Positions 4,597 through 58,762 of a stretch of DNA of 64,000 nt are shown in pieces (the first letter of the stretch is position 1; each line of letters begins with the position of its first letter). Under the pieces are notes generated by a model. It made no database searches, was not told where the DNA came from, and was given only the letters and a program-made list of their open reading frames with translations. Origin of the DNA: Candidatus Enterousia sp. (GTDB taxonomy: Bacteria; Pseudomonadota; Alphaproteobacteria; Rs-D84); assembly GCA_045613315.1 (NCBI GenBank), contig JAZLAV010000018.1, positions 33,975 to 97,974 on the forward strand. Reading direction: 5' to 3'. Both the position numbers and the translations under genes were made by a program.

Positions 4597-4941
4597 TTAT
4601 TTGTTTATCCAACCGCGGATGATGGCGGCGTGCTCGATTGTTTCCATGGCATCGTGCCACAATGCCGCGGCACGATTTTCCGCCCAGATATATTGGTGCG
4701 GGGCACGACGACGATCGCCATATTTTTTCATGACCCCCAATTGTTCGTCGGTTAATTTCCCGCACAGATACAATTTTGTCACCAATGATTCAACATCCAT
4801 CAATTCGCACACGCGACGGGTCGGATTGCCATGTTGGCGTGTAAAACCATTTTGAACCGATTTGGAATACAAGAACCAAAACCATAATTGTTCGGCGCTT
4901 TGGAATTTTTCTGGTGTATATGCGATTTGTGTTTTTGTCAT
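4597..4941 (-). CDS. hypothetical protein (114 aa)
   Basis: Intact ORF with a GGGAG RBS upstream. No domain recognised. Confidence 0.4.
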   Translation of the reverse strand: MTKTQIAYTPEKFQSAEQLWFWFLYSKSVQNGFTRQHGNPTRRVCELMDVESLVTKLYLCGKLTDEQLGVMKKYGDRRRAPHQYIWAENRAAALWHDAMETIEHAAIIRGWINK

Positions 4942-5178
4942 TTGTTTTTCTCCCTTGGTAAATTAAATTTAATGTATTTATAGACACGAATTAGAACGAT
5001 ATTAAATATTACAACCGCCGGTTGAAGTGCGAATCGGTTTTCCGATTCGTGTATAGAATTTGGTTTTGTGTAATCGAATCGGCCGTTGCGGTTTGTTTTT
5101 AATAAAAACCGCGCATTTAATGCGCGGTTTTATTGCATATGGTACATTATGAAGAGTTCATTGTGCCCCCCCGTGGAT

Positions 5179-5231: not shown

Positions 5232-7580
5232 TCACAAAATCGGTGGAAAACAATCGCCACCCGTTTGTGGACAGCAATTGAATCCTTGGTCACCCATATC
5301 GGTATAAATTTCGCCGGTACAGCAACCGTTTGCATCCGGTGCCAATCCGTCTTCACAGGTTATAATGTTTTCCGTCGGTGCCGTTTCAACGGGCAACTTT
5401 TCTGATTGGTACGGATTCTTTATCGAACCATCGTCATTATATTTCAATCCCAAAACCTGTTCGTTATAGGTTTTTGTATCGGTGGCTTTACTGGCGATAC
5501 TGTTGTTGTTGCTTGTGGATTGTTGATTTTGATAAACTGCTTCCTGGCGAGCATTATTTATTGCCTGGTAATTACTGGCCTGGCAATATGCAACCAGTGT
5601 ACTGTACGAATACCCCAATTTATTTAACGCATCCGCGATGACGGCATTATAATCCATTGCACGCAACGCACCGGTTTTGGAATCTGTAATACAATATTGC
5701 GACAGGTTAAACGAACGTGCCTGGCCAACCCACGAACCGTCGTCATAATCGGCCTTGGCGTCCCAATGGGGAACCGAACGAACAACGGTTGCCCTGTTCG
5801 CTGCGCCGTTCATATAGCATTTTTTACTGCCGTCTGTACAAGCAACCATCAAATCATACGGTGAATAAACTGTAATGCGTGTACCGGCCGGAATTGTGAA
5901 CGGTGGAACGGTATTGTCCATCATATCAACCAATAACTTTTGTGCCACCTGGTTCCAGGCGGTAATAATTTCATTTTTCGCCAGTTCAGATGAACGCATT
6001 GTTCCGCTTTGCACAACCGTGTTGTTGTCCAAATCAATTTGATTAACAAATTTATCGGCAACGGGTGCAATCATATTTACCGCCGCCGGTACAATGGCGG
6101 TTAACATCGGCATAACAAATTGTTCCAAGTAATCGGTACTGCCGCGACCGGGCACACCAACACGTCCCTGGGCATCGGCCGATGTTGGTTCGGTACCATT
6201 TTGGAAATTAAATTCAACGCCGTTTGGTAAAACAAATTGATACCATTTTATATTCATACGACCAATTGCCTTGTACGGGCCCGGAACATTTCCGGTGACA
6301 TAGCCCAACATAAGTGTTCCCGTGGGAATAATGATTGTTCGACCGTTATCTGAATATACGTTTCTATCAACTGTGGCACGCACAGGGAAATGCAGATTAT
6401 CGGCTTCCAGTGCAGCATCCGCCCGAACGTCGGAAACAATCGTTGCGGGAATCGGTTTGTATTGGCGCAATATAAATGTTCGGTCGTATGGTTGGGTTGC
6501 AACAATGGCATTTTGGTCCGTGGTGCCATAGGACACATCTGTATCCGGTTGCTTCGTTACCAGTTTTTTCATGCCCCCAGTCGGCGCGTCGGCAACAACG
6601 GCATCGGTTGCGCGCACGGATGTTTTACGTGCCCATGGCGCGTCATTCAATGTTGGCATATTGCCAGACGATACAACATTTCCAATATGTTCGGCATCGG
6701 TACCGATGCGTTTGCCATCACCGTTAATGTCGGTGATAATACCGCTGTCCGGGTTGTAAACACCGGTGGCGTTTTTGCATTCTGTATCTGAAAAAGGATG
6801 AAAATAGTATGCACCGTGTTCCGGTTTTATCCAACCAATTTGATTGCCCGATGCATCATATCCCGGGAACGCAAAATCAGAACAAGATTCCGACGCACGT
6901 GCGACCGGTTTTGGTTCTTCAATCGGTGTCGAAATTTCCTTTTTCCCGGCGAACGGGTCGGCGGGCGCAATCGTTTTTATTTCCGATTCAATTTCGTTGA
7001 CCGCGGGTTTCACAACGGGTTCCGGTTCCACGATTGGTTTTGCAACCGGTTTCGGTGTTTCTTTGATTTCAGGTGCGGTGGCGCCCAAAATAACAGTTAT
7101 TTTTTCCGCTGTTTTCATCGTGTCGGGTTCCGATGCCGCGCGCCAATCAACATACATTGTCACCGTTTCCGGTTTCATTGCGATATTTGGTGCGTATTCC
7201 AAAATCACACGGCACGGAATCGCAGCGGTTATTTCGCCGGCATCCGTACAGGTCGTTTTTACATTAAATCCATCGATTTCCTTGTTCCGGCGAACGGTTG
7301 CACGGGCGGGCGCATTGGTTTTTACGGTAATTGTTTCGGTTTTTTTTGTACCAACCATAACATTTGCCCAATCAACAGTGTCATTGGACAACGTGACCTT
7401 GACCTGGACATCATTTACCTTTTGAGTGTTTTTTTTCGCCCTGCCGCCGCCAATTAACAATGTTAACAGTATAACAACAACCAAAAATGCCGCCCCCAAC
7501 AGCAACCATTGAACGTATTTTGGTGTTGTATTGCGCAAATCTGAAAATTGCTGGCCAAGTTTATTCATGTTAATTCGCAC
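5232..7580 (-). CDS. virB10: type IV secretion system protein VirB10/TrbI family, with about 200-aa Cys-rich C-terminal extension
   Basis: N-terminal TM (WLLLGAAFLVVVILLTLLIGG), a Pro-rich linker (KETPKPVAKPIVEPEPVVKPAVNE), and the VirB10 C-terminal barrel region (NGRTIIIPTGTLMLGYVTG...ADAQGRVGVPGRGSTDYLEQF...FTIPAGTRITVYSPYDL). Possible starts are GTG at 7580 or ATG at 7568. Confidence 0.75.
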   Translation of the reverse strand: MRINMNKLGQQFSDLRNTTPKYVQWLLLGAAFLVVVILLTLLIGGGRAKKNTQKVNDVQVKVTLSNDTVDWANVMVGTKKTETITVKTNAPARATVRRNKEIDGFNVKTTCTDAGEITAAIPCRVILEYAPNIAMKPETVTMYVDWRAASEPDTMKTAEKITVILGATAPEIKETPKPVAKPIVEPEPVVKPAVNEIESEIKTIAPADPFAGKKEISTPIEEPKPVARASESCSDFAFPGYDASGNQIGWIKPEHGAYYFHPFSDTECKNATGVYNPDSGIITDINGDGKRIGTDAEHIGNVVSSGNMPTLNDAPWARKTSVRATDAVVADAPTGGMKKLVTKQPDTDVSYGTTDQNAIVATQPYDRTFILRQYKPIPATIVSDVRADAALEADNLHFPVRATVDRNVYSDNGRTIIIPTGTLMLGYVTGNVPGPYKAIGRMNIKWYQFVLPNGVEFNFQNGTEPTSADAQGRVGVPGRGSTDYLEQFVMPMLTAIVPAAVNMIAPVADKFVNQIDLDNNTVVQSGTMRSSELAKNEIITAWNQVAQKLLVDMMDNTVPPFTIPAGTRITVYSPYDLMVACTDGSKKCYMNGAANRATVVRSVPHWDAKADYDDGSWVGQARSFNLSQYCITDSKTGALRAMDYNAVIADALNKLGYSYSTLVAYCQASNYQAINNARQEAVYQNQQSTSNNNSIASKATDTKTYNEQVLGLKYNDDGSIKNPYQSEKLPVETAPTENIITCEDGLAPDANGCCTGEIYTDMGDQGFNCCPQTGGDCFPPIL

Positions 7581-7589
7581 CCGAAATAA

Positions 7590-9131
7590 TTATTGTATTC
7601 TTACCACGTTGCAACTGGCACCACTGAACTTTAACAATTGGTCGCACAGTTTTTGTGCCGTTTCAATGTCTGCCATTGGCCCGATGCGTAAACGATACAG
7701 ACGCGCGGTCGTTGAACCCGCACCCAATTCACCGACACCCTGTTCGTCGACAGCAAAGAACACCTTGTCCTTGTACGGGGTAAGCAACCCAGAACCATTT
7801 TCACCACTGAATTTTGCCAACAGGCCAACCCAATAATCATCCAATGCTTTGACCGAGGTGTCGGATTTCAATTCAACCGCGACGCCGGTTTGATTGCTGG
7901 AAATAATGGGAATGTTCGATTGCGGTAAATATGAACCCGCCGTCACACGTTCGGTTGGCATCATCGTAACCGCCCCAGACGATGTAGTGCCTGTGATTGT
8001 TGGTTGTGGATATACCTGGCCTGCGACAAAACCAGACGGCATATAATAACCCGCTGGATTTGTGTTTTGGACATTTCCAACCATAACTGGTGTGCCGGTG
8101 TAGTTTACCCCGGCCGCGTTAATCGCGTTCACATCATATCCATATGCCATCGTATTTAACGATTGACCGGACATCATGGATTGTGCAACGTTGGCCTCGG
8201 CCAATGCCATAACGGAATTGGTATCCGCAATAAGGAACGGTTTTTCGCGCTTTTTAATGCACACTATGCGTTGACCACTGCGCAGAACCATATCGCCAAC
8301 GGCTTCTACTATCAATAAACGTCCATCTTCACCGTCGGTGCGGAATCCAACCGGGGATTCGCCGCCTTCGACCAATAATGATACGACGGGACGCTGGGTC
8401 ATGGCAATAACCTTGTCCCCAAAGTCAATATATGTAAATATGCGATCGCGCCATACGCGTTCGGGCGCAATTACATAGTCGTCCGGGTTCGGAACAAATA
8501 TATCCAAATCGAAACGAAATTCAGATGGATCAATCTTCATAGATTTAATCCAACCATAATCTTCGCCGTCAACACCAATGGTGCCACCCGATGTCTTGGT
8601 TGTCTTTTTGAATATAGACGACATTCCGCCCGCGGCCGTGGTGGTTGTGCCCGCTATATTTGGCAATGCCGCGTTACCATCCATAACCACTTCCACCTGG
8701 GAATAGGTAATTTCAGACGAATTTGTTGGTTCCGCGCGAAGATAGAAAATATACTGATTGCCCGATTTGCCAGACACAATCATATTTGTGTCGCCACCCT
8801 GGGTATTGGCATTTGGGGTAATGTACATCACGTTTGCGCCCGGGGTTGTGTCGATTTGGAACATACCATCGTTTCCGATAGTCGCCTCGTCAATCTGTTC
8901 GCCGGTGGGCAACGATATCATTGTCACCATGCCACTGCGTAATCTTATTGGTAAAACGGTTCCCTTGGACCAAGATAGTTGTGCGTATCCGGGTTTCGTA
9001 CTGCCCGCGGCCATGTTGGCATTCGGATTGTTCCACGCGGTTTGCACCGCCATAGCATTCAATGGTGCCGTGCACACAATCGCCAAACACAGTAATGATA
9101 CATTTATTTTTAAGGTATTCAAAAAAGTCAT
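7590..9131 (-). CDS. virB9: type IV secretion system protein VirB9/TrbG family, fused to C-terminal SPOR-like domain
   Basis: Signal peptide, then a VirB9 N-domain (PIRLRSGMVTMISLPTGEQI...TNMIVSGKSGNQYIFYLRA) and C-domain (RIFTYIDFGDKVIAMTQRPVVSLLVEGG...LRSGQRIVCIKK). The roughly 95-aa C-terminal tail ...LYRLRIGPMADIETAQKLCDQLLKFSGASCNVVRI resembles SPOR peptidoglycan-binding domains. Confidence 0.75.
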   Translation of the reverse strand: MTFLNTLKINVSLLCLAIVCTAPLNAMAVQTAWNNPNANMAAGSTKPGYAQLSWSKGTVLPIRLRSGMVTMISLPTGEQIDEATIGNDGMFQIDTTPGANVMYITPNANTQGGDTNMIVSGKSGNQYIFYLRAEPTNSSEITYSQVEVVMDGNAALPNIAGTTTTAAGGMSSIFKKTTKTSGGTIGVDGEDYGWIKSMKIDPSEFRFDLDIFVPNPDDYVIAPERVWRDRIFTYIDFGDKVIAMTQRPVVSLLVEGGESPVGFRTDGEDGRLLIVEAVGDMVLRSGQRIVCIKKREKPFLIADTNSVMALAEANVAQSMMSGQSLNTMAYGYDVNAINAAGVNYTGTPVMVGNVQNTNPAGYYMPSGFVAGQVYPQPTITGTTSSGAVTMMPTERVTAGSYLPQSNIPIISSNQTGVAVELKSDTSVKALDDYWVGLLAKFSGENGSGLLTPYKDKVFFAVDEQGVGELGAGSTTARLYRLRIGPMADIETAQKLCDQLLKFSGASCNVVRIQ

Positions 9132-9159: not shown

Positions 9160-9894
9160 CTATTCGTTTCCGATAACGAATGCGTTCAACGGGTCGTCAT
9201 CGCCCGTTTCAACAGAATATCCTGTGACCCGCAACCCCAATGGATTTTCCATGTGGTCTGTCCATTTGGTGCTTTGGGTATTATCGGGTTCCACCTTTAC
9301 TTTTATTCTATAATCTTTTCGGTCGGTCTGTCCATAACTATTTGTGCAGAACCATTTAAAATCAACCGTATATGTTGTTCCGTCGGCTGTGTATTTCGTG
9401 ATACCACCCTGGGAAAATTCCACAGAACACGAAAACCCAAAATTGCCGTCAACACCATTGGCCGTGTTCAACAGATATTCTTGATACATCGCGGTATTGG
9501 CAAACCCGGCATAGACGTCGGACGATGACATTGTTCTGATACGGTTCCAATTGTTCGTCATAATGCGAATGTTTGGGTCGATTTCGTTTCTAGTTTTTAT
9601 ATATTCGGCAATAAATGCGCGTTTGTATTCGTCCAAACCGTCAACATCGGGCATAACCTTGGTTAATGTAATTTCGGTATTTGTTGGGTTCGCAGACCGC
9701 AGAAAGAACACCTCGGGCCGGTCCAGTGGGAACATTTTGTACAATGTCACCGCCATTGCGGCCAAAACAACCAACGTTGTCGCAAAGACAAGCATTAAAA
9801 CCCGAGATAGCAAAATTGGCGGTTCTATGCGGTTTTGCACGGTTTCTCCCCCTTGTGTATGTTGATTGTAGACAAAATCGCGGTGGTGGTGCAA
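9160..9894 (-). CDS. virB8: type IV secretion system protein VirB8/TrbF family
   Basis: Bitopic: a cytoplasmic N-terminus, one TM (VLMLVFATTLVVLAAMAVTLY), and a periplasmic NTF2-like domain with the VirB8 NPxG motif (ENPLGLRVTGYSV). Confidence 0.75.
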   Translation of the reverse strand: MHHHRDFVYNQHTQGGETVQNRIEPPILLSRVLMLVFATTLVVLAAMAVTLYKMFPLDRPEVFFLRSANPTNTEITLTKVMPDVDGLDEYKRAFIAEYIKTRNEIDPNIRIMTNNWNRIRTMSSSDVYAGFANTAMYQEYLLNTANGVDGNFGFSCSVEFSQGGITKYTADGTTYTVDFKWFCTNSYGQTDRKDYRIKVKVEPDNTQSTKWTDHMENPLGLRVTGYSVETGDDDPLNAFVIGNE

Positions 9895-9945
9895 GTAAAA
9901 ATTACAATATTTTTAGATTTTACAAAAGATAATGTTAATTTTTGC

Positions 9946-26049: not shown

Positions 26050-26168
26050 TAACTGTTTTAACGAATTATGAAAACTTTCACAGTTTGTGTAAAATAAAAA
26101 TGTTTTTTTGCTTGTTTATGGGGTGTATGTATGATAAAATGATACGTAATAGAAGGGAAGGATTTACA

Positions 26169-28454
26169 ATGAAAAGACTTGTCGTTGTGTTAAGTGGTTT
26201 GCTGGTGTTGCCCGCATTTGCTGAGGTTGCGCCATTTTTCTATGATGATGCACTGGAATATTCCGATGCGGAATATGTTGACGATGGTGTGTTGGTGGAC
26301 GACGGTGTCGTCGTTGCCGACGAAGATGTCGCGCCGGTTGCACCCGTTATTAACACAAATCCACGTGTCGCGGCATCATCTCGTAATGGGTTGCGTTCGG
26401 CACCAACGGCAAATGTTGCGTCAAATCGCACAACGGGGGTAAATTCTCGCGTCACTGCGGCGCGCACAACAACGTCGCGTACGGCCGTGCCGTCACGTGT
26501 GACAACAACTCGTGGGACCGTTTCCCGGGTGGCAACAAATAATACAACGACTGGCGGTGTGTCGGCGCGTCGTGCAACGACAACCGGGGGTGCAAATACC
26601 GCGCGTGCCGGAACGACCACGACAACCGCCACAACAACAATGACAACGTCAACGGGTCAAACAACCGGAGTTTACGAGAATAATAACCTTTATACCGGTC
26701 GAGTGGGGGTTCGTTCGTCGGCGTCTGCGCGTGTGCCGGCGATTCGTGTTGCGTCCGCGACAATGACAACGTCGGCATCCGATGTGTCAGCCGCGGCCAA
26801 AGAAACGGCCAGCACGATGGATGCAATAAAAGAATTGTCCGATTATTGCAAGGCGCAATATACCGCATGTATGGATAATTTCTGCAATGTTTTGGATGAT
26901 AATCAGGGTCGTTGTTCGTGCAGCAAAAATGTCAAGAACTATGAAAAAACCGAAACTGCATTAAAGGCTGCGACCGAAGAATTACAGGAAGTTGCGCAAA
27001 AAATTCAATATATCGGTTTAAGCAAGGATGAAATCACAACCCTGTTTAGCGAGACCGAGGCCGAATCCGCAATGCGTGGCCAGTCGGACAGCAGCCAGAT
27101 TAAGGCAAGTTTGGATAAAATTAAAAATATGATTGTCGATGTCAAAACCGGCACGGCGTCGTCTGTGACGGCTGATTCCGGGATGTCGTTTGATTTATCG
27201 AACCTGTTGGACTTTACGATTTCCAGTAGTGGTTTTGACCTGTCTGCGTTGTTTGGGACCACAACATCAAACAACACATCGTCGATTGGCAATCAACGTG
27301 GAGAAACGCTGTATAAAACCGCGGCTGCCCGGTGCAAGGCAGCGGTGTTGACGGACTGTATATCAAATGGTGTTGATGCGGCCGTTATAACCAATTCGTA
27401 TGATATGGAAATCGATAAACAGTGTATCGCATATGAACGCAGTTTGTCGGATGCAAACGACGAAATGTCGGCGACCGTGCGTAACGCAAAAACCGTTTTG
27501 CAAAAGGCGCGTTTGATGGTTGCGCAACAAAAGAACAGTTATGACCTGCGCGGGTGCATAAGTGCATTGGATTCCTGTATGCAGGACGACTATGTATGCG
27601 GTGCGGATTACGAATACTGTCTGGACCCGTCGGGCAAGTATATTGTCGACGGGGCAATTGTTGTCGGTTCATTGCCGGGCAAGGTGTTGACGCAAGCGGC
27701 GAAAGAATCTGGTATTCTTAACGAAGGATTGTATCAAACGTGGACATATACTCTTTCGGGTAGCAATGCTATATCGCCGTGGGATGGAAGGGATGATCAA
27801 AGTGGTAATTTGGCATCATATATTACCGCAACTTTAACATCTGATACTGTGGAAAATGTAGATTCAAATATGTCCAAATTCCTGCAGTACAAGATTGGAT
27901 ATAATGCCGGTGGTAAAAATTACGGTATGTGTATGTCCGTCCTTAATAAGTGCCAGGATTATACATACAGTAGTGGTACGTACGTGAATAATAACAGAAT
28001 TATCGAAGAGTTTCTGTATCGTACATTGCCACGAATCAAGGCAGGCCAGGATGCGTTGTTGTCAAGTTATGCCGAAACATGCATATCGGATGTGACGTCG
28101 TGTTTAAGCTCTAATAATTACAGAACAGATGGTGGTGCGTCTGCGAATAATATTGCACTTAATGCGTGCAGAAATATCATCCAGACGTGTATGTCGGTCA
28201 ACGGCAATGTTTTGTCGGCCCCAACCCCCGGCGAAATAAGTACTTGGGCGAAATATGTGTATAGTGCTGAAGAAGGTTCGGACGCCAACAGTGTGCAGAT
28301 ACAAAATTATACTTACTGCATAACCAATATCGAGCAAGACGGAACAGGGGTTGCTACAGAATGGGACGAAACAGCAAAATCGTGTACATGTAACACGGGT
28401 TATAGTTGGACAGGTTCGGCCACGGCCTTGGGGTCGTGCGAGGCAGATTCCTGA
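26169..28454 (+). CDS. large secreted protein of unknown function (signal peptide; Thr/Arg/Val-rich low-complexity region; Cys-rich C-terminal region with EGF-like pattern)
   Basis: AGGA RBS 7 nt before the ATG at 26169. Signal peptide MKRLVVVLSGLLVLPAFA. Repetitive stretch ...TTSRTAVPSRVTTTRGTVSRVATNNTTTGG.... Many paired Cys. The C-terminal stretch CTCNTGYSWTGSATALGSCE fits a C-x-C-x2-G-Y-x-x-G...C EGF-like pattern. Confidence 0.6.
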   Translation: MKRLVVVLSGLLVLPAFAEVAPFFYDDALEYSDAEYVDDGVLVDDGVVVADEDVAPVAPVINTNPRVAASSRNGLRSAPTANVASNRTTGVNSRVTAARTTTSRTAVPSRVTTTRGTVSRVATNNTTTGGVSARRATTTGGANTARAGTTTTTATTTMTTSTGQTTGVYENNNLYTGRVGVRSSASARVPAIRVASATMTTSASDVSAAAKETASTMDAIKELSDYCKAQYTACMDNFCNVLDDNQGRCSCSKNVKNYEKTETALKAATEELQEVAQKIQYIGLSKDEITTLFSETEAESAMRGQSDSSQIKASLDKIKNMIVDVKTGTASSVTADSGMSFDLSNLLDFTISSSGFDLSALFGTTTSNNTSSIGNQRGETLYKTAAARCKAAVLTDCISNGVDAAVITNSYDMEIDKQCIAYERSLSDANDEMSATVRNAKTVLQKARLMVAQQKNSYDLRGCISALDSCMQDDYVCGADYEYCLDPSGKYIVDGAIVVGSLPGKVLTQAAKESGILNEGLYQTWTYTLSGSNAISPWDGRDDQSGNLASYITATLTSDTVENVDSNMSKFLQYKIGYNAGGKNYGMCMSVLNKCQDYTYSSGTYVNNNRIIEEFLYRTLPRIKAGQDALLSSYAETCISDVTSCLSSNNYRTDGGASANNIALNACRNIIQTCMSVNGNVLSAPTPGEISTWAKYVYSAEEGSDANSVQIQNYTYCITNIEQDGTGVATEWDETAKSCTCNTGYSWTGSATALGSCEADS

Positions 28455-33094: not shown

Positions 33095-33194
33095 GATTGT
33101 GTATTGTAATGCCGTGCGGCATAATCGCAAGTTATAAATGAAAACTCTTTCATACGATTTGTTTTTGTGGTATAATAGGGTAAAAGTTGTTCTA

Positions 33195-34721
33195 ATGCGT
33201 TCAGGTAAAATCGCTTTTTTAATGACATTTTTGTTGCCTTTTGCGGCATTTGCAGCAAACGAGGGCGTGCCATCGTATTACCAGGCGGAATCGGAAACGA
33301 CCGCAAATCGCGTCGCGTATGGTAAATATGCAAACAATGGATATACAAAATATGTCGGGCAATCTGGCCAAAAACAAGTTGTTGGTACGAACACATACAC
33401 GTACCAGGTTCCACGCCAAAAAATTGTGAACCCAACTAATTCCAGTGCGGTATTTACCGATGGAACATATGTTGGCGCAGCAAACGGAACATTTACGGCA
33501 AATGGAATCGCAATGCCGATTGAATCCGAAGCAAAAACCAGTATATATGCCGGGTATTCGCGTCGTTTTGCGGATTTTCAGTTCAAAACGGGTGTAAATT
33601 CTGTTTTGGAATGGGACGATATGATTTTTAACGAAATCAACGTCGGCGCACGTCATAATTTTTCGCTGCGTAATTTCGATTTATTTGCGTATGCTGATTA
33701 TACATTTGGTGATATGACATCGGGTGGTTTGTCGATGGATTATGATTTGGAACCGTATGATTGGGCGGATCCGGATTACGGTATTTTCACAATATCTATG
33801 GGGGACCAATCGGGGCGCACGAATCGTTTCAAGGTTGGTATTGGTGCACATCATATTTGGGATATTGCCGGGTGGAAATTGTCGCCATCGATTGGGTACG
33901 AAGTGTTTAAGCATAATCTTAAAATGTCGGATCACCTGTATCCGAATCCGGGGATTTATTTACCCATGATGTCGGACAAGGGCGACTATGTCTATGGCGA
34001 CGAAGAAGGGTATTATTACACGTTGCCCGTCGGGACAGAAGCCCCGTCTGATTGGTACCAGGTTTGTTTAAGTCCCGAAGACATCGCATTGGCATCGGCA
34101 CCGACGGCCGGATTTTCTCAGTTGGGGACGTCAATTTCAACGACGCCATATACCGAATCGATGGGATATGTACCGTGGGGTGTTGGACCAAATGAATGTA
34201 TTATTATTGGTGGTGATGGTCCGATACGTATTAACGGCACGACGCATATTTATAACACGACATGGTCTGGGTTCTATTTGGGGTTGGAAATTGAAAAGCA
34301 GATGACATTGTCGGACAAACTGCGTTTTTATTTCCAGGTTGGTTTGCCAAAATATTCATCCGAAGGTATTTGGCCAAATCGTGACGATTGGCAACAAAAC
34401 CCAAGTTTCCTGGATGAGGGGTCCAAAGGTGCGTACACATACACCGCGGAAATGGAATATGATTTGCGCCTGTCCAATCGGTTGCAACTGGTTATCAAGG
34501 CGGACACAAACTATTTCCACGTTGGTAAAATAGGTGGCGAATTATACGTTGCGTCATACAGTGCATTTTGGATTGATGAAAACGGTCAATATATTTTGGA
34601 CGATAACGGGTTGCCGATTATTGAAACGACGCCGGCGCATACCGAAAAAATATCGGAATCATTGAAAGAGGCCGTATGGCAATCGTTCGGTCTGCATATC
34701 GGGTTTAAATACGCATTTTAA
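33195..34721 (+). CDS. outer-membrane beta-barrel protein of unknown function
   Basis: Signal peptide FLMTFLLPFAAFA. The beta-strand-like alternating pattern ends ...GLHIGFKYAF (C-terminal aromatic residue). The start was moved to the internal ATG. Confidence 0.55.
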   Translation: MRSGKIAFLMTFLLPFAAFAANEGVPSYYQAESETTANRVAYGKYANNGYTKYVGQSGQKQVVGTNTYTYQVPRQKIVNPTNSSAVFTDGTYVGAANGTFTANGIAMPIESEAKTSIYAGYSRRFADFQFKTGVNSVLEWDDMIFNEINVGARHNFSLRNFDLFAYADYTFGDMTSGGLSMDYDLEPYDWADPDYGIFTISMGDQSGRTNRFKVGIGAHHIWDIAGWKLSPSIGYEVFKHNLKMSDHLYPNPGIYLPMMSDKGDYVYGDEEGYYYTLPVGTEAPSDWYQVCLSPEDIALASAPTAGFSQLGTSISTTPYTESMGYVPWGVGPNECIIIGGDGPIRINGTTHIYNTTWSGFYLGLEIEKQMTLSDKLRFYFQVGLPKYSSEGIWPNRDDWQQNPSFLDEGSKGAYTYTAEMEYDLRLSNRLQLVIKADTNYFHVGKIGGELYVASYSAFWIDENGQYILDDNGLPIIETTPAHTEKISESLKEAVWQSFGLHIGFKYAF

Positions 34722-34735
34722 TATGGGGGTGTCCC

Positions 34736-35782
34736 ATGGGGTACAAGACGTTTTTTTCCGCTTTTTGTGCGCTGGTATTATTTGTGCCGTGTGTTGTACG
34801 TGCAGACGAAGGTGCGTTTGATATGGCGCGTTGGGAATCTGTGTTGAACGGTGTGCGGTCGCGGGCGGCGGCGGAAAACGTTTCGCAAAAAGTGATTGAC
34901 GACACATTGCGTGCGCCGGTGTTTGTTCCGTCAGTTGTTAAAAGCGATAAGAATCAATCAGAATTCAAATTGTCTTTGTCGGAATATCTTAATCGCACGG
35001 TAAGTCAAACGCGCATTGTGGACGGTAAAAAAATGCGTTTACGGTACCCGACAATGTTGGGGCGGGTTGAAAAGGCATATGGTGTTCCGTCACATGTTAT
35101 GTTGGCATTTTGGGGTATGGAATCGAATTATGGTGCGGTGAAATCGCGTCATAAATTAACGAACGCGTTTTTGTCGTTAATGTACGACGGCCGTCGGGAA
35201 GAGTTTTTTACCAACCAGTTAATTGCGCTTATGAAGATTGCCGATAAAAACGGTCTGGATGTAAACGATATACGGGGCAGTTGGGCCGGCGCCATGGGGC
35301 ATTTTCAGTTTATTCCGACAACACTTAGCCAATATGGGGTCGATGGCAACGGCGACAACCGTGTTGATATTATAAACAGTGTAGGGGACGCAATGTTTTC
35401 TGCGGGTAATTACCTGAACAAATTGGGGTGGAATCCGAACGAACGCATTGCGCGCCGTGTGGTTTTGCCGGCGGATTTTGATACATCGTTGTTGCGGGGT
35501 GATGTCAAGAAACCTTTATCAGATTGGGCAGCAATGGGTGTTTTGAATGACGATGGGACATCGATTCCAACAAATGATATGACGGCGGGTTTGGTTGCAG
35601 ATGTCGCGGCAATTGAAACCGCGCGCACCGTGGCGGAATCAGAAAATCCAGACGTTGACGTTGCACCGATGCCAGTGATAACGGCATATTTGACATATCC
35701 GAATTTCTATCGCATTAAAAAGTGGAACAATTCGAATTGGTATGCAATAGCAATCGCGGAATTGTCAGACGCATTGAAATAG
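34736..35782 (+). CDS. mltB: lytic murein transglycosylase (MltB/Slt35 family)
   Basis: Signal peptide, plus ...AFWGMESNYG... and GAMGHFQFIPTT, characteristic of the MltB family. Confidence 0.8.
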   Translation: MGYKTFFSAFCALVLFVPCVVRADEGAFDMARWESVLNGVRSRAAAENVSQKVIDDTLRAPVFVPSVVKSDKNQSEFKLSLSEYLNRTVSQTRIVDGKKMRLRYPTMLGRVEKAYGVPSHVMLAFWGMESNYGAVKSRHKLTNAFLSLMYDGRREEFFTNQLIALMKIADKNGLDVNDIRGSWAGAMGHFQFIPTTLSQYGVDGNGDNRVDIINSVGDAMFSAGNYLNKLGWNPNERIARRVVLPADFDTSLLRGDVKKPLSDWAAMGVLNDDGTSIPTNDMTAGLVADVAAIETARTVAESENPDVDVAPMPVITAYLTYPNFYRIKKWNNSNWYAIAIAELSDALK

Positions 35783-35888: not shown

Positions 35889-36377
35889 ATGTCAAAACAA
35901 ATACAAATTCGGCGCGGTACCGCAGCCGAGCATAGCAGTTTTACCGGTGCAATCGGTGAACTTACAATGGATACAACCAACAAAACAATCCGGGTCCACG
36001 ATGGCACAACCGCGGGTGGCACAGTTTTGGCGAAACAAAGCGAAATACCCGATTTAACAAATGTTGATTATGTAATTGAAACACAATTACCCACGGCGGA
36101 AAATAATTACACATGGTACAGAAAATACAAAAGTGGCTGGGTCGAACAGGGGGGAATACTAAATGCGGGAGGCACATCTGCAGTAACGGTTTCATTACCA
36201 ATCACAATGAACAATTCAGAATATAATATTCACGCAACTTGTATAAATTCTGTCGAATATTGGTGTGGGTCATCCGCACACACAACAAACACATGTACAT
36301 TTCGTACAACAAACCGTAACGGCGAAGGTTATATGCAACGGGTTAGTTGGTGTGTTTCTGGTATAATAGCAAACTAA
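35889..36377 (+). CDS. phage tail-fibre-like protein (N-terminal IQIRRGTAAE...GEL...DGTTAGG motif)
   Basis: MSKQIQIRRGTAAEHSSFTGAIGELTMDTTNKTIRVHDGTTAGG matches the conserved N-terminus shared by phage tail fibres and the major tropism determinant (IQLRRGTAAEW...GELG.ETDTGK.KIGDG). RBS AAAGGA. Confidence 0.55.
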   Translation: MSKQIQIRRGTAAEHSSFTGAIGELTMDTTNKTIRVHDGTTAGGTVLAKQSEIPDLTNVDYVIETQLPTAENNYTWYRKYKSGWVEQGGILNAGGTSAVTVSLPITMNNSEYNIHATCINSVEYWCGSSAHTTNTCTFRTTNRNGEGYMQRVSWCVSGIIAN

Positions 36378-37552
36378 AATTTTAAACACGTACTTATAAT
36401 ATCAGACAAATTATGCTTATAATTTTGATAAGTATAATTTTGTCTGGTTTCGTCTTTGACCTTTTTTGATAAATTTCTTAAATCAGATTCCGACATTTCC
36501 AGCATTTTATTTATGCGTTTTTCTATTTCGGTTATGGATATCTTGTTAAACTCAAATCCGTATTTACTGATGTTTAATCCCGTACTTTGTGAACAAATTG
36601 GTATTAAACCGCCGTTTGCCATACACATTAAAGTCGCAACCGCGCCACCTTCGGATACAGACGGTGTAATTACGGCGACATTATTATCCATAATACGTTT
36701 AAAATCATCGGACTCAACATCAACAAATTCGTAATATGTTATATTTTTGTGTTTGCCGGTAAACACATCTTTATAATAATCATACAATATTTGTTCGCCC
36801 CTGCTAAAACCACATATTGTTAAATTCAATTCGGGGTGTTTTTTAAATAATTCGATTACTAAATCCAATCCTTTGTGCAAACCACCGGACGAACCAAAAA
36901 ACAGGAAGTTTGTTTTTATGTTTGTAAAATCTTTACTGTCAATATTAATATCATATGTGTCATAATAAAATGCATTTAAATTAAAAATACGATTTTTTAC
37001 GTTATGTGTGTTTTTAACAAAATCATTACCCAATACGATAATATTTTTAGCAAAATTATTTATTACTGAATTATCTTGGTCACAATAACGCGCAGAATCA
37101 GGACACCATTTGCCGGTCGCGTTGTAAAAATCTATAACTTTCTGTATGGTTACAATATTTGAAAAATCGATTGAGCAACCCGGACTGTAAAAAATAGTAT
37201 TTATTTTTGGGTTTGAACACGCTATACGAAAATTATGCCCAAAACCATAAATAACATCATAATTTTCTATTTCATCATGTGATAATAATGTGTCCCAATT
37301 TGCAACATCAACGGTATAACCCATTTCATTAAATATTTGCGCAGCAGTAAAACATTCCATAAAATTTGTATGTGCCCTTGAAAGTCCTTTTGTGAATGGT
37401 GTGGTTATATATGATACAAGAACCCGTTTTTTTCGGTGTTTTGCATTAAATACGTTATATAAAATATTTCGTCCGGCTTCGTGGTGTCGTATTGCCACGC
37501 GCCAACCATGGAAAGGAATTATTTTTAATAATAATTTTTTGTATAATTTCAT
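36374..37552 (-). CDS. glycosyltransferase family 1 (GT-B, GT4-like)
   Basis: 392 aa. The C-terminal ...NVAVITPSVSEGGAVATLMCMANGGLIPICS is an EX7E-type GT1 motif region. Very AT-rich. Confidence 0.6.
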   Translation of the reverse strand: MKLYKKLLLKIIPFHGWRVAIRHHEAGRNILYNVFNAKHRKKRVLVSYITTPFTKGLSRAHTNFMECFTAAQIFNEMGYTVDVANWDTLLSHDEIENYDVIYGFGHNFRIACSNPKINTIFYSPGCSIDFSNIVTIQKVIDFYNATGKWCPDSARYCDQDNSVINNFAKNIIVLGNDFVKNTHNVKNRIFNLNAFYYDTYDINIDSKDFTNIKTNFLFFGSSGGLHKGLDLVIELFKKHPELNLTICGFSRGEQILYDYYKDVFTGKHKNITYYEFVDVESDDFKRIMDNNVAVITPSVSEGGAVATLMCMANGGLIPICSQSTGLNISKYGFEFNKISITEIEKRINKMLEMSESDLRNLSKKVKDETRQNYTYQNYKHNLSDIISTCLKF

Positions 37553-38343
37553 TGTTTTTTACCTTGCTTGTTAAACAATATATGAAATCCGAAAATTGTG
37601 ATTACCTTTTTGTCAAAAAACATAAAATTGTTTATTGAAAATATTTTTTGTATCAAAGACAATTGGCTGTTAAAAGCATGATGAATTTGTTGTTTCGTAA
37701 ACATTTGACTTACAATGTATGATTTTTCTTTTTGCCAGCGATTTTCCCCGGATGCACCATTTACATCAAAATAACACGCCCTGAACGGTATATGTTTATA
37801 CGAACATTTGTGTATATGAATAAATTCAACCCATTTTTTCCAATCGCTTACTATTTTTAAATTTTCATCATACATACCGTATTTTTCAAATAAATCACGC
37901 TTTATCAGCGTTCCTTGATGTGGTAAAGTATCCAGAATCAAAAAATTTGTATCTATTGTATCCGGAACAGTACACTCTTTATCGTATTCTTTTATGTATC
38001 TGTGACCATAAATAATATCTGCATCCAATCCGGCAGATACAAATTTTTTTAACACGTTTTTATCATACAATGAATCACCGGCATTCATAAACAAAAGGTA
38101 ATCGCCACTGGCGCGTTTGATACCTTTGTTCATCGCGTTATAAATGCCGTTATCTTTTTCAGATACAAAATAGTCCATATGCGATTTATATTTTTCAAAT
38201 ATGTCCAATGTTTCTTGGTTTGAACCGCCATCGATAACAATCCATTCAAAATCTTGAAATGTTTGATTTATAATGCTTCGGCATGTTTGTTCTGTGTTTG
38301 GGGCATTATAACATATTGTTATGATGCTTATTTTTTTACTCAT
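37549..38343 (-). CDS. glycosyltransferase family 2 (GT-A)
   Basis: ISIITICYNAPNTEQTCRSIINQTFQDFEWIVIDGGS...FMNAGD (DxD). Overlaps the downstream GT by 4 nt. Confidence 0.7.
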   Translation of the reverse strand: MSKKISIITICYNAPNTEQTCRSIINQTFQDFEWIVIDGGSNQETLDIFEKYKSHMDYFVSEKDNGIYNAMNKGIKRASGDYLLFMNAGDSLYDKNVLKKFVSAGLDADIIYGHRYIKEYDKECTVPDTIDTNFLILDTLPHQGTLIKRDLFEKYGMYDENLKIVSDWKKWVEFIHIHKCSYKHIPFRACYFDVNGASGENRWQKEKSYIVSQMFTKQQIHHAFNSQLSLIQKIFSINNFMFFDKKVITIFGFHILFNKQGKKQ

Positions 38344-39211
38344 AATTTACGGCCCTTTTTAATTTGAAATATTTTATTGGGTGATGAAAAAGCATGTGTT
38401 TTGATAAAAACATCGGATTAAAAAATCGGGATTTGCGCACCACTTGCAGTAATTTTTTTCGCAAAACAGGATTGTCCGACAGAAAATTCAACATATATAA
38501 TTTGATTTTGGCTGTGCTTTCTTGTTGGATTTGTTTTTGCCGGATACTTACATTTTCGCCGTGCCAACGATATTTCAATAATATATCTGGTAAATTATGT
38601 ATTTGTGTAATTTGTATCATGCGGGCCCACAAATCATAATCTTCGGCATTGGTGTATTCCGCACGATACCGTAAATCGTGTTTGATAAATATTTCCCTGC
38701 GTATCATAGCACTTGGGTTTGCAATATTACACATATTCAACATATCGATATATGAAATATTTTGTTTCATATGTACATCTGTGTCAGAACATCCAAATTG
38801 ATGATACGATGTTCCCAAAACCCCACATTCGGGATGGGTGTTCATATAGGCGACCTGGGTGGCAAAACGTTTTGGTAATGAAACATCGTCACTGTCCATA
38901 AGCGCGATATATTCGCCAGAACATAAAGAAAGTCCCTGGTTAAGAACCACAATACGTCCATTGTTCGTGGGGTTGTTTATAAATTTGATTCTTTTATCTT
39001 GTTTTGCATATTGGGCAATAATGTTGGCGGTGTTGTCTGTGGAACCGTCATTTATGATGAAAAATTCAAAATCAGTAAATGTTTGTGATAAAATACTTTC
39101 AATCGCCTCGGCAATATATTTTTCAGAGTTATATGCGGTCATTAACACCGATACTCGCGGGGTGTGCGATGGCGTGGCCGTGGTGCGACCCGCGTTTTCT
39201 AATGATTTCAT
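38336..39211 (-). CDS. glycosyltransferase family 2 (GT-A)
   Basis: VSVLMTAYNSEKYIAEAIESILSQTFTDFEFFIINDGSTD...LMDSDD. Confidence 0.7.
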   Translation of the reverse strand: MKSLENAGRTTATPSHTPRVSVLMTAYNSEKYIAEAIESILSQTFTDFEFFIINDGSTDNTANIIAQYAKQDKRIKFINNPTNNGRIVVLNQGLSLCSGEYIALMDSDDVSLPKRFATQVAYMNTHPECGVLGTSYHQFGCSDTDVHMKQNISYIDMLNMCNIANPSAMIRREIFIKHDLRYRAEYTNAEDYDLWARMIQITQIHNLPDILLKYRWHGENVSIRQKQIQQESTAKIKLYMLNFLSDNPVLRKKLLQVVRKSRFFNPMFLSKHMLFHHPIKYFKLKRAVNYE

Positions 39212-45649: not shown

Positions 45650-46290
45650 AATTATTTGACGGCGACAATCACAAACGCGGGTAATCCCCATCCAAAATTT
45701 TGTATTTCCCGCCCGCGGCGGAGTGTCACGAAGTGACGGGGTGGGTATTCGGTGTCGTTTGTTCCGATGAACGGTTGGAACCCTCCCCGCCCTGCGAGCC
45801 ATCCCCTCCGATGGAGGGGAATTATTCTCTGGGCCCAGTTTCCAGAAAAACGCAATGCGTTTCCCAGGCCCCCGTTTCATTTTGTCATTGCGAGCAAAGG
45901 GTACCCACAAAATGCAACGCATTTTGCGGGGGCCGCCGGCGAAGCAATCCAGTCAATAGTGTATGGGCGTTCCGCTCACGGCTTTATTACACCCTGGATT
46001 GCCGCGGTCGCTACGCTCCCTCGCAATGACAAAGCCGCCACCCACCCACCAAACAAAATTATTCCCTTTTGGGTTTTCTGTGTTATAATGAGTATTGAAT
46101 CCAATGGGAATTGGGTTCGGGCTGTGGTAAGCCTACAAAAATCCGGTGCAAAAGCATCGTAATCTGATGTTTTTCGGTGCCTTTTGCACCGTTATACATC
46201 CCCGATTGTTTGGTCGGGGAACAGACTTGATTTTTGGTCTTTACCACTCCCCGACCGCTTTTCCTTTGGCGGTCTTTTTCTTTATAACCA
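45650..46290. repeat. GC-rich, palindrome-dense non-coding island
   Basis: About 640 bp that is markedly GC-richer than its flanks, with no coherent ORF. There are at least 10 short perfect or near-perfect hairpins: gtcacgaagtgac, cccctccgatggagggg, aaaacgcaatgcgtttt, cgccggcg, ggtgcaaaag..cttttgcacc, ccccgattgtttggtcgggg, gaccgcttttcctttggcggtc. Also a distant inverted pair tgtcattgcgag (about 45888) and ctcgcaatgaca (about 46021). Confidence 0.55.
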
Positions 46291-46301
46291 ATGGAACAAA
46301 C

Positions 46302-47348
46302 ATGGCAAATGTACATTTTGATAACGCAAAACGTAATAAAAACGATGAGTTTTATACTTGTTATGAGGATATCGAAAAAGAATTAAATCACTATGCCAAG
46401 TATTTCAAGAACAAGGTGATTTATTGCAATTGCGATGACCACGCGGGAATTGGGCTGGGAACACCAAAATCAAACTTCCTTAAATACTTTGCCGATAATT
46501 TTGAGGCATTTGGCATTAAAAAAGTAATCGCCACCCATTATGAACGCGATGGCGCATCCACAATGTATGTGTTGGACCACGATAACACCGGCGATGGTAT
46601 TATTTGCAGCGAGGATATAGAAGAAATACCATTAAAGAGTAATGGCGATTTTCGTTCGCCCGAGTGTATTGAATTGTTAAAAACCGCGGACATCGTAATT
46701 ACAAACCCGCCATTTTCGTTGTTTGGTGAGTATGTTGCGCAACTAATGGAATATAAAAAGAAATTCATAATTATTGGTAATGATAATTGCCGAACCTATA
46801 AAGATATATTCCAATTGATAAAAGGTAACAGATTCTGGAGTGGATATAATCATGTAAAAAAATTTGTAAAACCAGATGGGGAAATACAGCAGTTCGGTAA
46901 TGTTTCTTGGTACACAAATATACCAACAATACGACGTAATGAAAAGATAGAAACCGGTAAAAAATATTACGGATACGAAAGCATGTATTCCCAATACGAA
47001 AATTACGATGCAATAAATGTCAATAAGACGGACGATATCCCAATGGACTATGACGGCGTAATGGGCGTACCTATTACTTTTATTGATAGGTACAATCCAG
47101 AACAATTTGAAATTGTTGCCTTGGGTATAGTTGGTAGTTGTAATTTTACTAGTAATAAAAAAATGGAAATTTTGGACAAACAAGGCAACAGGACGGGTAA
47201 ATTTACATTTAATGCAAAGGGAACGTTGTACAGGAAATACAACCCAAACAATCCGAAAGATAACCCCGCCTTTGTAGATGTTGAAACAGGACAATTGTAT
47301 TCCAGCATTTATGCGCGAATTTTAATCAAAAAGAAAAAGGGGAACTAA
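46302..47348 (+). CDS. N6-adenine DNA methyltransferase, EcoRI-methylase-like family
   Basis: MANVHFDNAKRNKNDEFYTCYEDIEKELNHYAKYFKNKVIYCNCDD... and motif IV NPPF (ITNPPFSLF). The ORF-track ATG at 46146 lies inside the GC-rich island; the start was reset to the ATG at 46302. Confidence 0.7.
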   Translation: MANVHFDNAKRNKNDEFYTCYEDIEKELNHYAKYFKNKVIYCNCDDHAGIGLGTPKSNFLKYFADNFEAFGIKKVIATHYERDGASTMYVLDHDNTGDGIICSEDIEEIPLKSNGDFRSPECIELLKTADIVITNPPFSLFGEYVAQLMEYKKKFIIIGNDNCRTYKDIFQLIKGNRFWSGYNHVKKFVKPDGEIQQFGNVSWYTNIPTIRRNEKIETGKKYYGYESMYSQYENYDAINVNKTDDIPMDYDGVMGVPITFIDRYNPEQFEIVALGIVGSCNFTSNKKMEILDKQGNRTGKFTFNAKGTLYRKYNPNNPKDNPAFVDVETGQLYSSIYARILIKKKKGN

Positions 47349-47349
47349 T

Positions 47350-48549
47350 ATGGTGATGAAGGCAAAGTTGTTTGATACATTAACCGTTCGGCAATTGGTC
47401 GATGGTTACCGCGATTCCGGCGACAACGGTGTTGTTGCGTTTGGTGGAAAACTTAATGTGCGACCCGCATTCCAACGCGAATTTATTTATACGCCACGTG
47501 ATAGAGACATGGTTATGAAATCGGTTTATGATAATTTACCGTTAAATGTTATGTATTGGGCACGCAACCCCGATGGCACATTTGAAATTATTGATGGACA
47601 ACAGCGCACAATTTCCATATGCCAATTTATCACGAACGATGATGGTTATGGCAATCCAATCGCAATTAACTTTGATGGTCGCCGAACGCAAACATTTAAT
47701 CAAATGTCACCGGAAAAACAGCGCGAAATATTGGACGAATATAAATTAATGGTCTATGTTTGCGATGGCACCGAAGACGAAAAATTGGAATGGTTCCATA
47801 CCATAAACATTGCCGGCAAAGTGATGGAGGAACAAGAATTACTAAATGCCGACTATACGGGAACATGGCTGACATCGGCCAAGGCGTTCTTTTCCAAAAA
47901 AGACAACAATCCCGCATTGAATTATCGGTATTATGACAACGACCGAAAACACAGTTTAATTGCACTTAACGCCGATGATGCCAATCGCCAGGCGTTACTG
48001 CATTTGGTGTTGGGGTGGATTGTGGACGGCAACCCCAAATTATATCCGGAAATAAAAAACTATATGTCGATTCACCGCGCAGACGAAAATGCAGATGAAT
48101 TGATAAATTACTATAAATCGGTTGTTGATTGGGTGCACGATGTGTTCGGTGAAAAATACTATAACGAAATGCGCGGGTTGCCGTGGGGATTAATCTTTAA
48201 TAAATATCGATATGGTAAATATGACCAATCGGTTATGGCACGCGCGGTCTCGGGACTGATGGCAGACGAAGAAATACAAAACAAACGTGGCATTTTCGAG
48301 TTTCTGTTTGATATGAACCAAAAACACCTGAACCTGCGGCAATTTGATAACGCAACCAAACGCACAATTTATCAAAAGCAGGCCGGCATTTGTCCGTACT
48401 GTGCCAACACGGAAAACGCAAACAAAGTGTGGAAATTCGAGGAAATGGAGGGCGACCATATTATGCCGTGGTCCCAGGGTGGCAAAACCATTCCAGAAAA
48501 TTGCCAAATGTTATGCAAACATCATAACAGGGCAAAAAGCGACAATTAA
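47350..48549 (+). CDS. DUF262 (ParB-like, DGQQR) domain fused to C-terminal HNH endonuclease
   Basis: EIIDGQQRTISICQF is the DUF262/GmrS-type motif. The C-terminal CPYCANTEN...EGDHIMPWSQGGKTIPENCQMLCKHHNRAKSDN is a classic HNH. The ATG is 2 nt after the MTase stop, so the two are translationally coupled. Confidence 0.7.
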   Translation: MVMKAKLFDTLTVRQLVDGYRDSGDNGVVAFGGKLNVRPAFQREFIYTPRDRDMVMKSVYDNLPLNVMYWARNPDGTFEIIDGQQRTISICQFITNDDGYGNPIAINFDGRRTQTFNQMSPEKQREILDEYKLMVYVCDGTEDEKLEWFHTINIAGKVMEEQELLNADYTGTWLTSAKAFFSKKDNNPALNYRYYDNDRKHSLIALNADDANRQALLHLVLGWIVDGNPKLYPEIKNYMSIHRADENADELINYYKSVVDWVHDVFGEKYYNEMRGLPWGLIFNKYRYGKYDQSVMARAVSGLMADEEIQNKRGIFEFLFDMNQKHLNLRQFDNATKRTIYQKQAGICPYCANTENANKVWKFEEMEGDHIMPWSQGGKTIPENCQMLCKHHNRAKSDN

Positions 48550-52057: not shown

Positions 52058-52171
52058 CAATAGACTTGAAAATTATGCCCCGCATTCGTGCGGGGTATTT
52101 TTATTCGTACAAAACGCTTTTTTATACCCGCGTTTTATGATATAATACATCATAAGAAAATAGAGGCCAGA

Positions 52172-53299: not shown

Positions 53300-53334
53300 A
53301 CGTGGGTGCGCATTGCACAATGGTTAAACAGAAT

Positions 53335-58752: not shown

Positions 58753-58762
58753 GTAATATTGG

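Follow-up and report, generated by a model that had tools for sequence, protein, structure and literature searches.

Little is understood of how a type IVA secretion system takes its position in the cell envelope and is held to the cell wall, and the virB9 homologue described here raises the question whether such a machine may carry a wall-binding module of its own, built into a core ring subunit. The gene (7590..9131, minus strand, stop codon included) was found as an open reading frame (ORF) with a Pfam CagX match in a stretch of 64,000 nucleotides from Candidatus Enterousia sp. (contig JAZLAV010000018.1), referred to below as the window, and it encodes a protein of 513 amino acids (aa). The original prediction, made from the letters of the window, was that the protein is longer than a typical VirB9, that a Gly/Thr-rich linker joins the VirB9 part to a C-terminal SPOR-like domain, and that binding of this domain to septal peptidoglycan anchors or targets the secretion channel. 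We assign residues 401-513 (7593..7931, minus strand) with high confidence to the SPOR superfamily, on the agreement of Pfam, hhalign profile-profile comparison, an AlphaFold2 (AF2) model, Foldseek structure comparison and the ratio of nonsynonymous to synonymous substitution rates (dN/dS), and we weigh what such a domain may do on a type IV secretion system (T4SS).

Organization of the VirB9 protein

By its Pfam match and gene context the protein is a divergent member of the VirB9 family and not an equivalog of the P-type conjugative VirB9: the CagX/VirB9 profile PF03524 covers residues 51-294 (profile positions 5-197/198) with 79.1 bits against a gathering score of 34.2 (E 5e-22), and the equivalog cut-off of NCBIfam TIGR02781 was missed (51.7 versus 217.7 bits). 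NCBI data contain a 100% identical protein (P0001), and the homologues found number more than 1500. The translation contains the strings quoted in the original prediction, ...LRSGQRIVCIKK and ...TARLYRLRIGPMADIETAQKLCDQLLKFSGASCNVVRIQ, and the unusual length pointed out there is borne out: the Xanthomonas VirB9 chain 6gyb_b has 255 aa and TIGR02781 has 248 positions, so that about 210 residues are extra at the C-terminus. The codon of the last residue ends at base 7593 and is followed by a TAA stop at 7590-7592; all coordinates of parts of this gene refer to the minus strand.

The protein begins with a predicted Sec signal peptide (residues 1-27, 9051..9131, MTFLNTLKINVSLLCLAIVCTAPLNAMA with cleavage before VQ), which, as read from the sequence, is plausible in its basic n-region, hydrophobic core and A-x-A-like cleavage motif. 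The VirB9 core follows, i.e. the N- and C-terminal β-sandwich domains (residues 51-294, 8250..8981, Pfam CagX). In a full-length AF2 model based on 33 close homologues (predicted local distance difference test [pLDDT] 46, predicted template-modelling score [pTM] 0.30), the N-terminal domain was modelled at pLDDT 80-87 and matches the solved chain 6gyb_b, and the VirB9 C-terminal domain and the linker were not modelled. A PDB sequence search with the whole protein returned a VirB9 N-terminal domain as its sole match (E 0.015). Cys291, in the sequence RIVCIKK (8259-8261), stands close to the end of the VirB9 C-terminal domain and is kept in 80/80 genes of the clade described below.

Behind the core there is a conserved segment predicted to be helical (residues 301-335, 8127..8231; IADTNSVMALAEANVAQSMMSGQSLN...), delimited by alignment and by the low-confidence full-length model, in which helices span residues 305-321 and 325-339. 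In an alignment of 120 homologues the column identity is 0.97 over residues 301-320 and 0.79 over residues 321-340. The segment is without an identifiable counterpart; it might replace contacts to VirB7 or serve as a stalk for the SPOR domain. The variable linker (residues 336-400, 7932..8126), recognized by alignment, indels and a pLDDT below 50, is low in complexity, rich in indels and the least conserved stretch of the protein, apart from the similarly variable inter-domain block 161-180. It leads to residues 401-513, a highly conserved block with column identity 0.86-0.93 in the same alignment. The description of the linker as Gly/Thr-rich was roughly right, as residues 300-400 hold 13 A, 12 T, 11 V, 11 G and 9 N, but its first 35 residues are conserved and predicted to be helical.

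Assignment of the C-terminal domain to the SPOR superfamily

In the whole protein, the SPOR profile PF05036 matches residues 475-511 with 22.4 bits against a gathering score of 21 (E 1.6e-4), and the last 103 aa alone score up to 25.8 bits; the alignment is limited to profile positions 40-76, i.e. the second β-α-β half of the domain. An exhaustive phmmer search with residues 400-513 over 1.84 billion representative proteins gave 28 matches only. Four of these (P0129, P0134, P0135 and P0147) are distant proteins that carry the domain after a CagX/VirB9 domain, and four (P0136, P0139, P0143 and P0146) are multi-SPOR proteins with 80-117 bits on PF05036; VirB9-type fragments and a few low-complexity repeat proteins were also among the matches. 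P0131, P0133, P0140 and P0142, repeat proteins aligned on the low-complexity loop GVGELGAGSTT, were dropped as chance or compositional matches.

Two alignments were compared by hhalign: A2, consisting of 12 diverse VirB9-linked copies of the domain (32-66% identity), of which 10/12 match PF05036 by themselves (best E 5e-8), and A3, consisting of nine SPOR domains cut from genuine alphaproteobacterial multi-SPOR proteins. A2 aligned to A3 at 98.6% (E 5e-16) over 80 columns, which is the whole SPOR domain (columns 4-84/85). When the halves were taken separately, the second gave E 1.5e-13 and the first P 2.3e-4 in the correct register. In the window, the hidden Markov model of A3 found this VirB9 as its only match among 585 ORFs (E 1.5e-9).

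An AF2 model of residues 400-513, computed from alignment A2, has pLDDT 77 and pTM 0.71 and the order β-α-β-β-α-β, with predicted elements β1 (416-424), α1 (427-442), β2 (457-463), β3 (477-486), α2 (489-503) and β4 (508-512), or E17-25, H28-43, E58-64, E78-87, H90-104 and E109-113 in model numbering. The folded core in this model runs from G416 to Q513 (7593-7886). The span first proposed for the domain, 7593-7890, corresponds to residues T415-Q513 and coincides with it, β1 starting at G416. In a Foldseek search of the PDB with the model, the best match was 6i09, the SPOR domain of Pseudomonas aeruginosa RlpA with bound denuded glycan (probability 1.00, template-modelling score 0.72 on the target), followed by 6i05 (the same RlpA domain without ligand) and 6ztg (the SPOR domain of DedD); these top three have probabilities of 0.99-1.0, and generic ferredoxin-like folds come below them at 0.6 or less.

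Some results pull in the opposite direction. When A2 was aligned to the SPOR domains of E. coli FtsN, DamX, DedD and RlpA (taken from NC_000913.3), the match was weak (46%, E 2e-4) and confined to the second half. A PDB sequence search with the domain profile found the SPOR domain of CwlC at E 0.78, amid chance matches; the AF2 model of the domain rests on 12 sequences; and the Foldseek E-value is a modest 1.8e-3. Two controls bear on these points. Alignment A3 matched the four E. coli domains over their full length (96.6%, E 6e-10), and since A2 is weak against E. coli but A2 against A3 and A3 against E. coli are both strong, homology to the classical SPOR domains is transitive. A profile of genuine SPOR domains likewise finds only CwlC in the PDB sequence search, which makes this search a weak probe for the family. 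With Pfam, profile-profile comparison, predicted fold and best PDB matches in agreement, membership of the block 401-513 in the SPOR superfamily can be held with high confidence from sequence and model, as the original prediction had it.

The domain shares with the SPOR domains of FtsN, DamX, DedD, RlpA (for P. aeruginosa, 6I05 and 6I09) and Bacillus subtilis CwlC (1X60) a ribonucleoprotein-like β-α-β-β-α-β fold of about 75-100 residues, a YRxxxGP motif in β3, an arginine patch on the sheet and, as predicted here, a periplasmic location. Unlike canonical SPOR domains it has longer α1-β2 and β2-β3 loops, and its fusion partner is a ring protein of a secretion system instead of a division protein, an amidase or a lytic transglycosylase.

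Conservation and selection

In a scan of a genome collection, about 200 matching stretches were confirmed and the best 80 were kept, no two of them from the same species-level genome. From 79 of these 80 the gene was recovered intact (499-534 aa), with the SPOR-like domain in every one, and the fused domain is present in 80/80 genes of this clade. The source genomes are rumen and gut metagenome-assembled genomes labelled Alphaproteobacteria or Candidatus Enterousia. The Enterousia group belongs to the order Rs-D84 and has genomes of about 0.75-1.0 Mb, which lack the tricarboxylic acid cycle and respiration and contain RodA, MreB and MrdA (PMC12306168).

From codon alignments with the three closest species, dN/dS is 0.016-0.026 for the SPOR-like domain, i.e. 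strong purifying selection, compared to 0-0.013 for the VirB9 C-terminal domain (residues 191-300), 0.04-0.12 for the VirB9 N-terminal domain, 0.05-0.09 for the segment 301-335 and 0.08-0.13 for the linker, where the ratio of nonsynonymous to synonymous differences per site (pN/pS), 0.52, is also the highest in the protein. The codon-alignment dN/dS identifies the minus-strand frame as the coding one, and the antisense ORF at 7531..7836 is incidental.

A second clade, related to P0147, has the same architecture in proteins of 510-617 aa and comprises more than 100 protein clusters (1108 matches, of which the best 120 were examined). Many of its members already hold precomputed PF05036 and PF03524 assignments and bear just the name "TrbG/VirB9 family P-type conjugative transfer protein", an annotation that misses the SPOR domain. 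A domain of the wall-binding type is in this way built into a core ring subunit and conserved in at least two large clades of uncultured Alphaproteobacteria, of which the clade of the window is common in animal guts.

Two of the distant fusions were viewed in their neighbourhoods, which are chromosomal and resemble in layout the rvh T4SS of Rickettsiales. At locus L081, next to rplS, trmD and rimM, the order is virB8, a 58-aa gene, a second virB8, virB9-SPOR, a virB10 of 2274 aa and virB11; at locus L082 it is virB8, virB9-SPOR, a 283-aa gene and virB10. The 58-aa gene between the virB8 paralogues (L081 1395-1571) could be a virB7, and the 283-aa gene (L082 8241-9092) has no Pfam match.

These data also bear on whether the extension is a domain at all, or a low-complexity tail with a chance Pfam match, or the product of an assembly error or frameshift that joined virB9 to a downstream gene. 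The marginal Pfam score, its restriction to profile positions 40-76 and the low complexity of the linker would fit such an artefact. All 80 independent genomes have this architecture in a single ORF, as has the second clade with its more than 100 protein clusters, the domain is under selection with dN/dS of about 0.02, the AF2 fold is confident and the hhalign E-value is 5e-16, and the artefact, which was rejected on these grounds, is extremely improbable. Neither a lack of any SPOR profile match nor an unstructured low-complexity extension, the outcomes that would have spoken against the original prediction, was observed: the profile match is present and the domain is folded as well as selected.

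Ligand-site residues

The glycan contacts of SPOR domains are known from the crystal structure of RlpA with glycan and from earlier mutagenesis (PMC6895207). A Gln in β1 is highly conserved (Q270 in RlpA, Q251 in FtsN, Q351 in DamX), and in RlpA its amide hydrogen-bonds the lactyl carboxylate of N-acetylmuramic acid (MurNAc) and the acetyl group of N-acetylglucosamine. An aromatic residue just after β1, F274 in RlpA, stacks on MurNAc, and a basic patch (R302, R309 and R311 in RlpA, with R285 as the FtsN counterpart) binds the MurNAc lactyl carboxylate in RlpA. Simulations connect this Gln with N-acetyl recognition, and by their prediction RlpA does not bind deacetylated peptidoglycan (all PMC6895207).

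In hhalign, Glu420 (codon 7872..7874) is placed opposite the β1 Gln, which aligns in turn to the Gln of E. coli FtsN, DamX, DedD and RlpA; these equivalences to RlpA and FtsN come from profile alignments, not from superposed coordinates. The position is Glu in 80/80 sequences of the clade of the window, in 120/120 of the second clade and in 11/12 of the diverse copies, the twelfth having Asp, as against Gln in 12/13 genuine full SPOR domains examined and in both half-repeats of CwlC. Among the matches in the 1.84 billion representative proteins, the Glu form is carried by VirB9-linked sequences only. The aromatic position is Asp424 in 80/80 sequences; members of the second clade have His, Asn, Gly, Ser or Asp there. 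A candidate basic patch is found by alignment at Arg480-Leu481-Arg482 (7686..7694) in the β3 motif YRLRIGP, which aligns with YRLRAGP of genuine SPOR domains and with the region of FtsN R285; R480 and R482 are invariant (80/80 and 120/120, i.e. 200/200 sequences). Also invariant in all 200 sequences are Trp434, Gly484, Pro485, Cys496, Cys507 and Arg511. Cys496 in α2 and Cys507 at the start of β4 (7611..7646), a pair likewise invariant in A3, may form a periplasmic disulfide, which would connect α2 to β4, whereas the Cys pair of FtsN connects β1 to β4. Judged by these positions, the domain is a distinct "Glu-type" SPOR subfamily, found on VirB9 only within the limits of the searches.

Because the β1 Gln is replaced by Glu, the aromatic residue is lost and the direct comparison with E. 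coli is weak, the ligand may differ from denuded septal glycan; and as two of the three glycan-contact features are absent, an action like that of the FtsN or RlpA SPOR domain is not established. It could accordingly be supposed that the domain is derived from SPOR with a changed specificity and binds another feature of the wall, candidates being strands that bear peptides, anhydro-MurNAc ends and N-deacetylated sugars, in which Glu420 could pair with the free amine; the system would then be placed by peptidoglycan editing and not by septal amidase activity. The near-complete exchange of Gln for Glu, its confinement to VirB9-linked sequences and the link between Gln and the N-acetyl group, with the predicted failure of RlpA on deacetylated peptidoglycan (PMC6895207), all fit this explanation, as does the precedent of Legionella, where the acetylation state of peptidoglycan controls DotK binding and Dot/Icm placement. 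Glu and Asp are, on the other hand, common ligands of sugar hydroxyls and compatible with ordinary glycan binding, the residue equivalence rests on aligned profiles, and no peptidoglycan deacetylase was found, no search aimed at one having been made; we regard a changed specificity as unlikely. Less likely still is a bolder form of it, in which the Glu-type SPOR domain would be a new specificity class that reads a non-denuded feature (e.g. de-N-acetylated or edited strands), and a minimal type IVA system would be both placed and licensed by its own wall chemistry through a sensor built into its ring.

Proposed function

The C-terminal domains of canonical VirB9 proteins form the outer layer of a multi-copy core complex under the outer membrane. 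We propose that the present VirB9 would be a subunit of a chromosomal, Rickettsiales-like (rvh-type) T4SS of a gut alphaproteobacterium of the Candidatus Enterousia group, with a C-terminal periplasmic module in which a conserved helix leads through a flexible linker (about 65 residues) to a divergent SPOR-family domain. Since VirB9 forms a multi-copy ring of the outer-membrane core complex, the SPOR-like domains would form a crown on the machine, and their tethers would be of sufficient length to extend to the peptidoglycan under the outer membrane; in canonical systems the ring is a 14-mer (PMC3093366). Glycan strands would be bound through the exposed face of the β-sheet (Glu420, Arg480 and Arg482), which would anchor the core complex on the cell wall and might recruit or retain it where glycan is exposed, i.e. 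at the division septum, at new poles or in locally remodelled wall. Glu420, Arg480 and Arg482 lie on β1 and β3, strands of the sheet that forms the SPOR glycan site, and we infer from residue alternation that their side chains face the ligand side. The periplasmic location, ligand, stoichiometry and localization of the module are likewise what we infer. Among the peptidoglycan machinery of the organism, a gene for an MltB-like transglycosylase is present in the window.

By analogy and sequence, tethering of the outer-membrane core complex to peptidoglycan glycan is somewhat more probable than the other roles taken together; specific binding to denuded glycan of the septum is doubtful. Among the arguments that tell against tethering are those of the ligand site: the carboxylate of Glu could not donate hydrogen bonds in the way of the RlpA Gln, and the stacking aromatic is gone, so that the septal peptidoglycan binding and channel targeting of the original prediction, offered there as an inference, is weakened by the exchange of Gln for Glu. 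In addition, the full-length model has a pLDDT of only 46 and therefore does not give the geometry of the domain relative to the core complex, and no other T4SS genes were found in the 64-kb window among 20 further large ORFs searched, which bears on the completeness of the machine in this genome.

The domain might instead have been co-opted for protein-protein contact, building an extra periplasmic ring or docking on the enlarged VirB10 or on a VirB7-like lipoprotein, with no binding to the wall. Small α/β domains do build rings in other envelope machines, VirB10 is enlarged by long additional regions (782 aa here, with six conserved Cys in its tail, and 2274 aa in L081), no virB7 gene was seen in the operon, and the domain no longer has the Gln and the aromatic residue with which canonical SPOR domains contact glycan. 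With its low conservation and many indels, the linker nevertheless fits a wall-binding module on a tether better than a ring of fixed position, the invariant Glu and the two invariant Arg map to β1 and β3, strands of the ligand-site sheet, and the characterized members of the homologous SPOR family all bind peptidoglycan. A role in protein contact alone appears to us improbable, and tethering to the wall is the function we prefer.

Relation to known envelope machines

Tethers of this kind are known from separate accessory proteins of type IVB systems, such as DotK, and from other machines, such as the secretin PilQ with its AMIN domains. DotK, a peptidoglycan-binding part of the Legionella Dot/Icm core complex, is needed to hold the machine, once assembled at mid-cell, at the poles (PMC10266036). 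It is a lipoprotein of its own, OmpA-like in fold, and recognizes the peptide part of peptidoglycan (meso-diaminopimelic acid), whereas the module described here is fused covalently to the VirB9 of a type IVA-like system and has the SPOR fold, which is of the glycan-binding type. In PilQ of the type IVa pilus, fused AMIN domains attach to peptidoglycan at the septum and the poles and recruit the machine to nascent poles (PMC10653833, PMC5285504); machine (a secretin), fold (AMIN) and domain position (N-terminal) all differ from VirB9-SPOR. GspB/OutB ties the secretin of the type II secretion system to peptidoglycan (PMC9239104). As envelope machines with peptidoglycan-binding modules are known already, a VirB9-SPOR fusion is not surprising in principle; a literature search combining VirB9 with SPOR domain or with peptidoglycan-binding found no description of such a fusion. 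With about 100 residues and three invariant surface residues, the domain offers a testable handle on T4SS tethering, on assembly at the division site and on the effect of a Gln to Glu exchange on SPOR specificity.

Compared to canonical VirB9/TraO/TrbG proteins (Agrobacterium tumefaciens VirB9, pKM101 TraO and Xanthomonas VirB9 6GYB), the protein has the same CagX/VirB9 core with N- and C-terminal domains and the same position between virB8 and virB10, but it is about 210 residues longer at the C-terminus, no virB7 adjoins its gene and other T4SS genes are not adjacent. Like the rvh T4SS, the present system is a chromosomal T4SS gene set that is scattered in a reduced alphaproteobacterial genome, and L081 shares with rvh the layout of a duplicated virB8 followed by virB9-virB10-virB11 (PMC2653234); for RvhB9, no SPOR-type extension is described in that paper. 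A. tumefaciens VirB9 forms a disulfide with the VirB7 lipoprotein through C262 (PMC2653234). Cys291 recalls C262 by its position near the end of the C-terminal domain, and a search of the operon and its intergenic regions for a small virB7-like lipoprotein gene found nothing convincing.

The virB8-virB9-virB10 operon

The virB9 gene is flanked on the same strand by a virB8 homologue (9160..9894, 244 aa, the first gene; Pfam VirB8 PF04335 over residues 22-228, E 9e-17), at a distance of 28 bp, and by a virB10 homologue (5232..7580, 782 aa, the last gene; Pfam TrbI over residues 372-572, E 4e-18, and NCBIfam VirB10), at a distance of 9 bp. Upstream of virB8 there is a σ70-like promoter match (9909..9938, minus strand; TTAACA-18-AAAAAT, 9/12 consensus positions), which is weak because promoter-like sites are not clearly enriched over shuffled sequences. 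The operon sits between yidC/lspA and tRNA-Trp, the latter followed by the cluster secE-nusG-rplKAJL-rpoBC; the flanking genes were named by reading ORF translations.

VirB10 has long extensions at both the N- and the C-terminus. Its transmembrane segment is followed by a weak Ig-like match (ASH/choice-of-anchor D) and a Pro-rich region. The C-terminal extension of about 200 aa ends in a six-Cys motif (last ~45 codons, about 5235-5370), C-x8-9-CC-x-GE-x-YTDMG-x-QGFNCCP-x3-GDCFPPIL, which has no Pfam match and in which all six Cys are kept in 73/73 related genomes. Downstream of virB10, beyond a weak terminator-like site at 5012-5024, lies an ORF of 114 aa (4597-4941, minus strand) without a signal peptide and with a sub-threshold DUF6906 match only.

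Other features of the window

At 33138-35782 (plus strand), a gene for a 527-aa protein with a match to the porin family of the Protochlamydia outer membrane protein (Pom) is followed by that for the MltB-like lytic transglycosylase (SLT_2, E 1e-86). A cluster of low GC content (0.32) at 36374-39211 (minus strand) contains three glycosyltransferase genes, one GT1 and two GT2, and is probably a horizontally acquired surface-polysaccharide locus. At 46146-48549 (plus strand), where the GC content is also lower (0.39), a gene for an EcoRI-type adenine methyltransferase is directly followed by a gene for a GmrSD_N and HNH endonuclease, a probable restriction-modification or modification-dependent restriction pair. 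Four large ORFs at 26085-28454 and 51014-55005 (plus strand; 789, 347, 403 and 567 aa) remained without a Pfam match at E <= 1e-5, and the last three of them are contiguous on the same strand. Towards the end of the window (58663-64000) the GC content falls to 0.31-0.39, and a large serine recombinase gene with Resolvase and Recombinase domains (60081-61700) lies downstream of tRNA-Ser (58663-58752); this region is probably an integrated mobile element.

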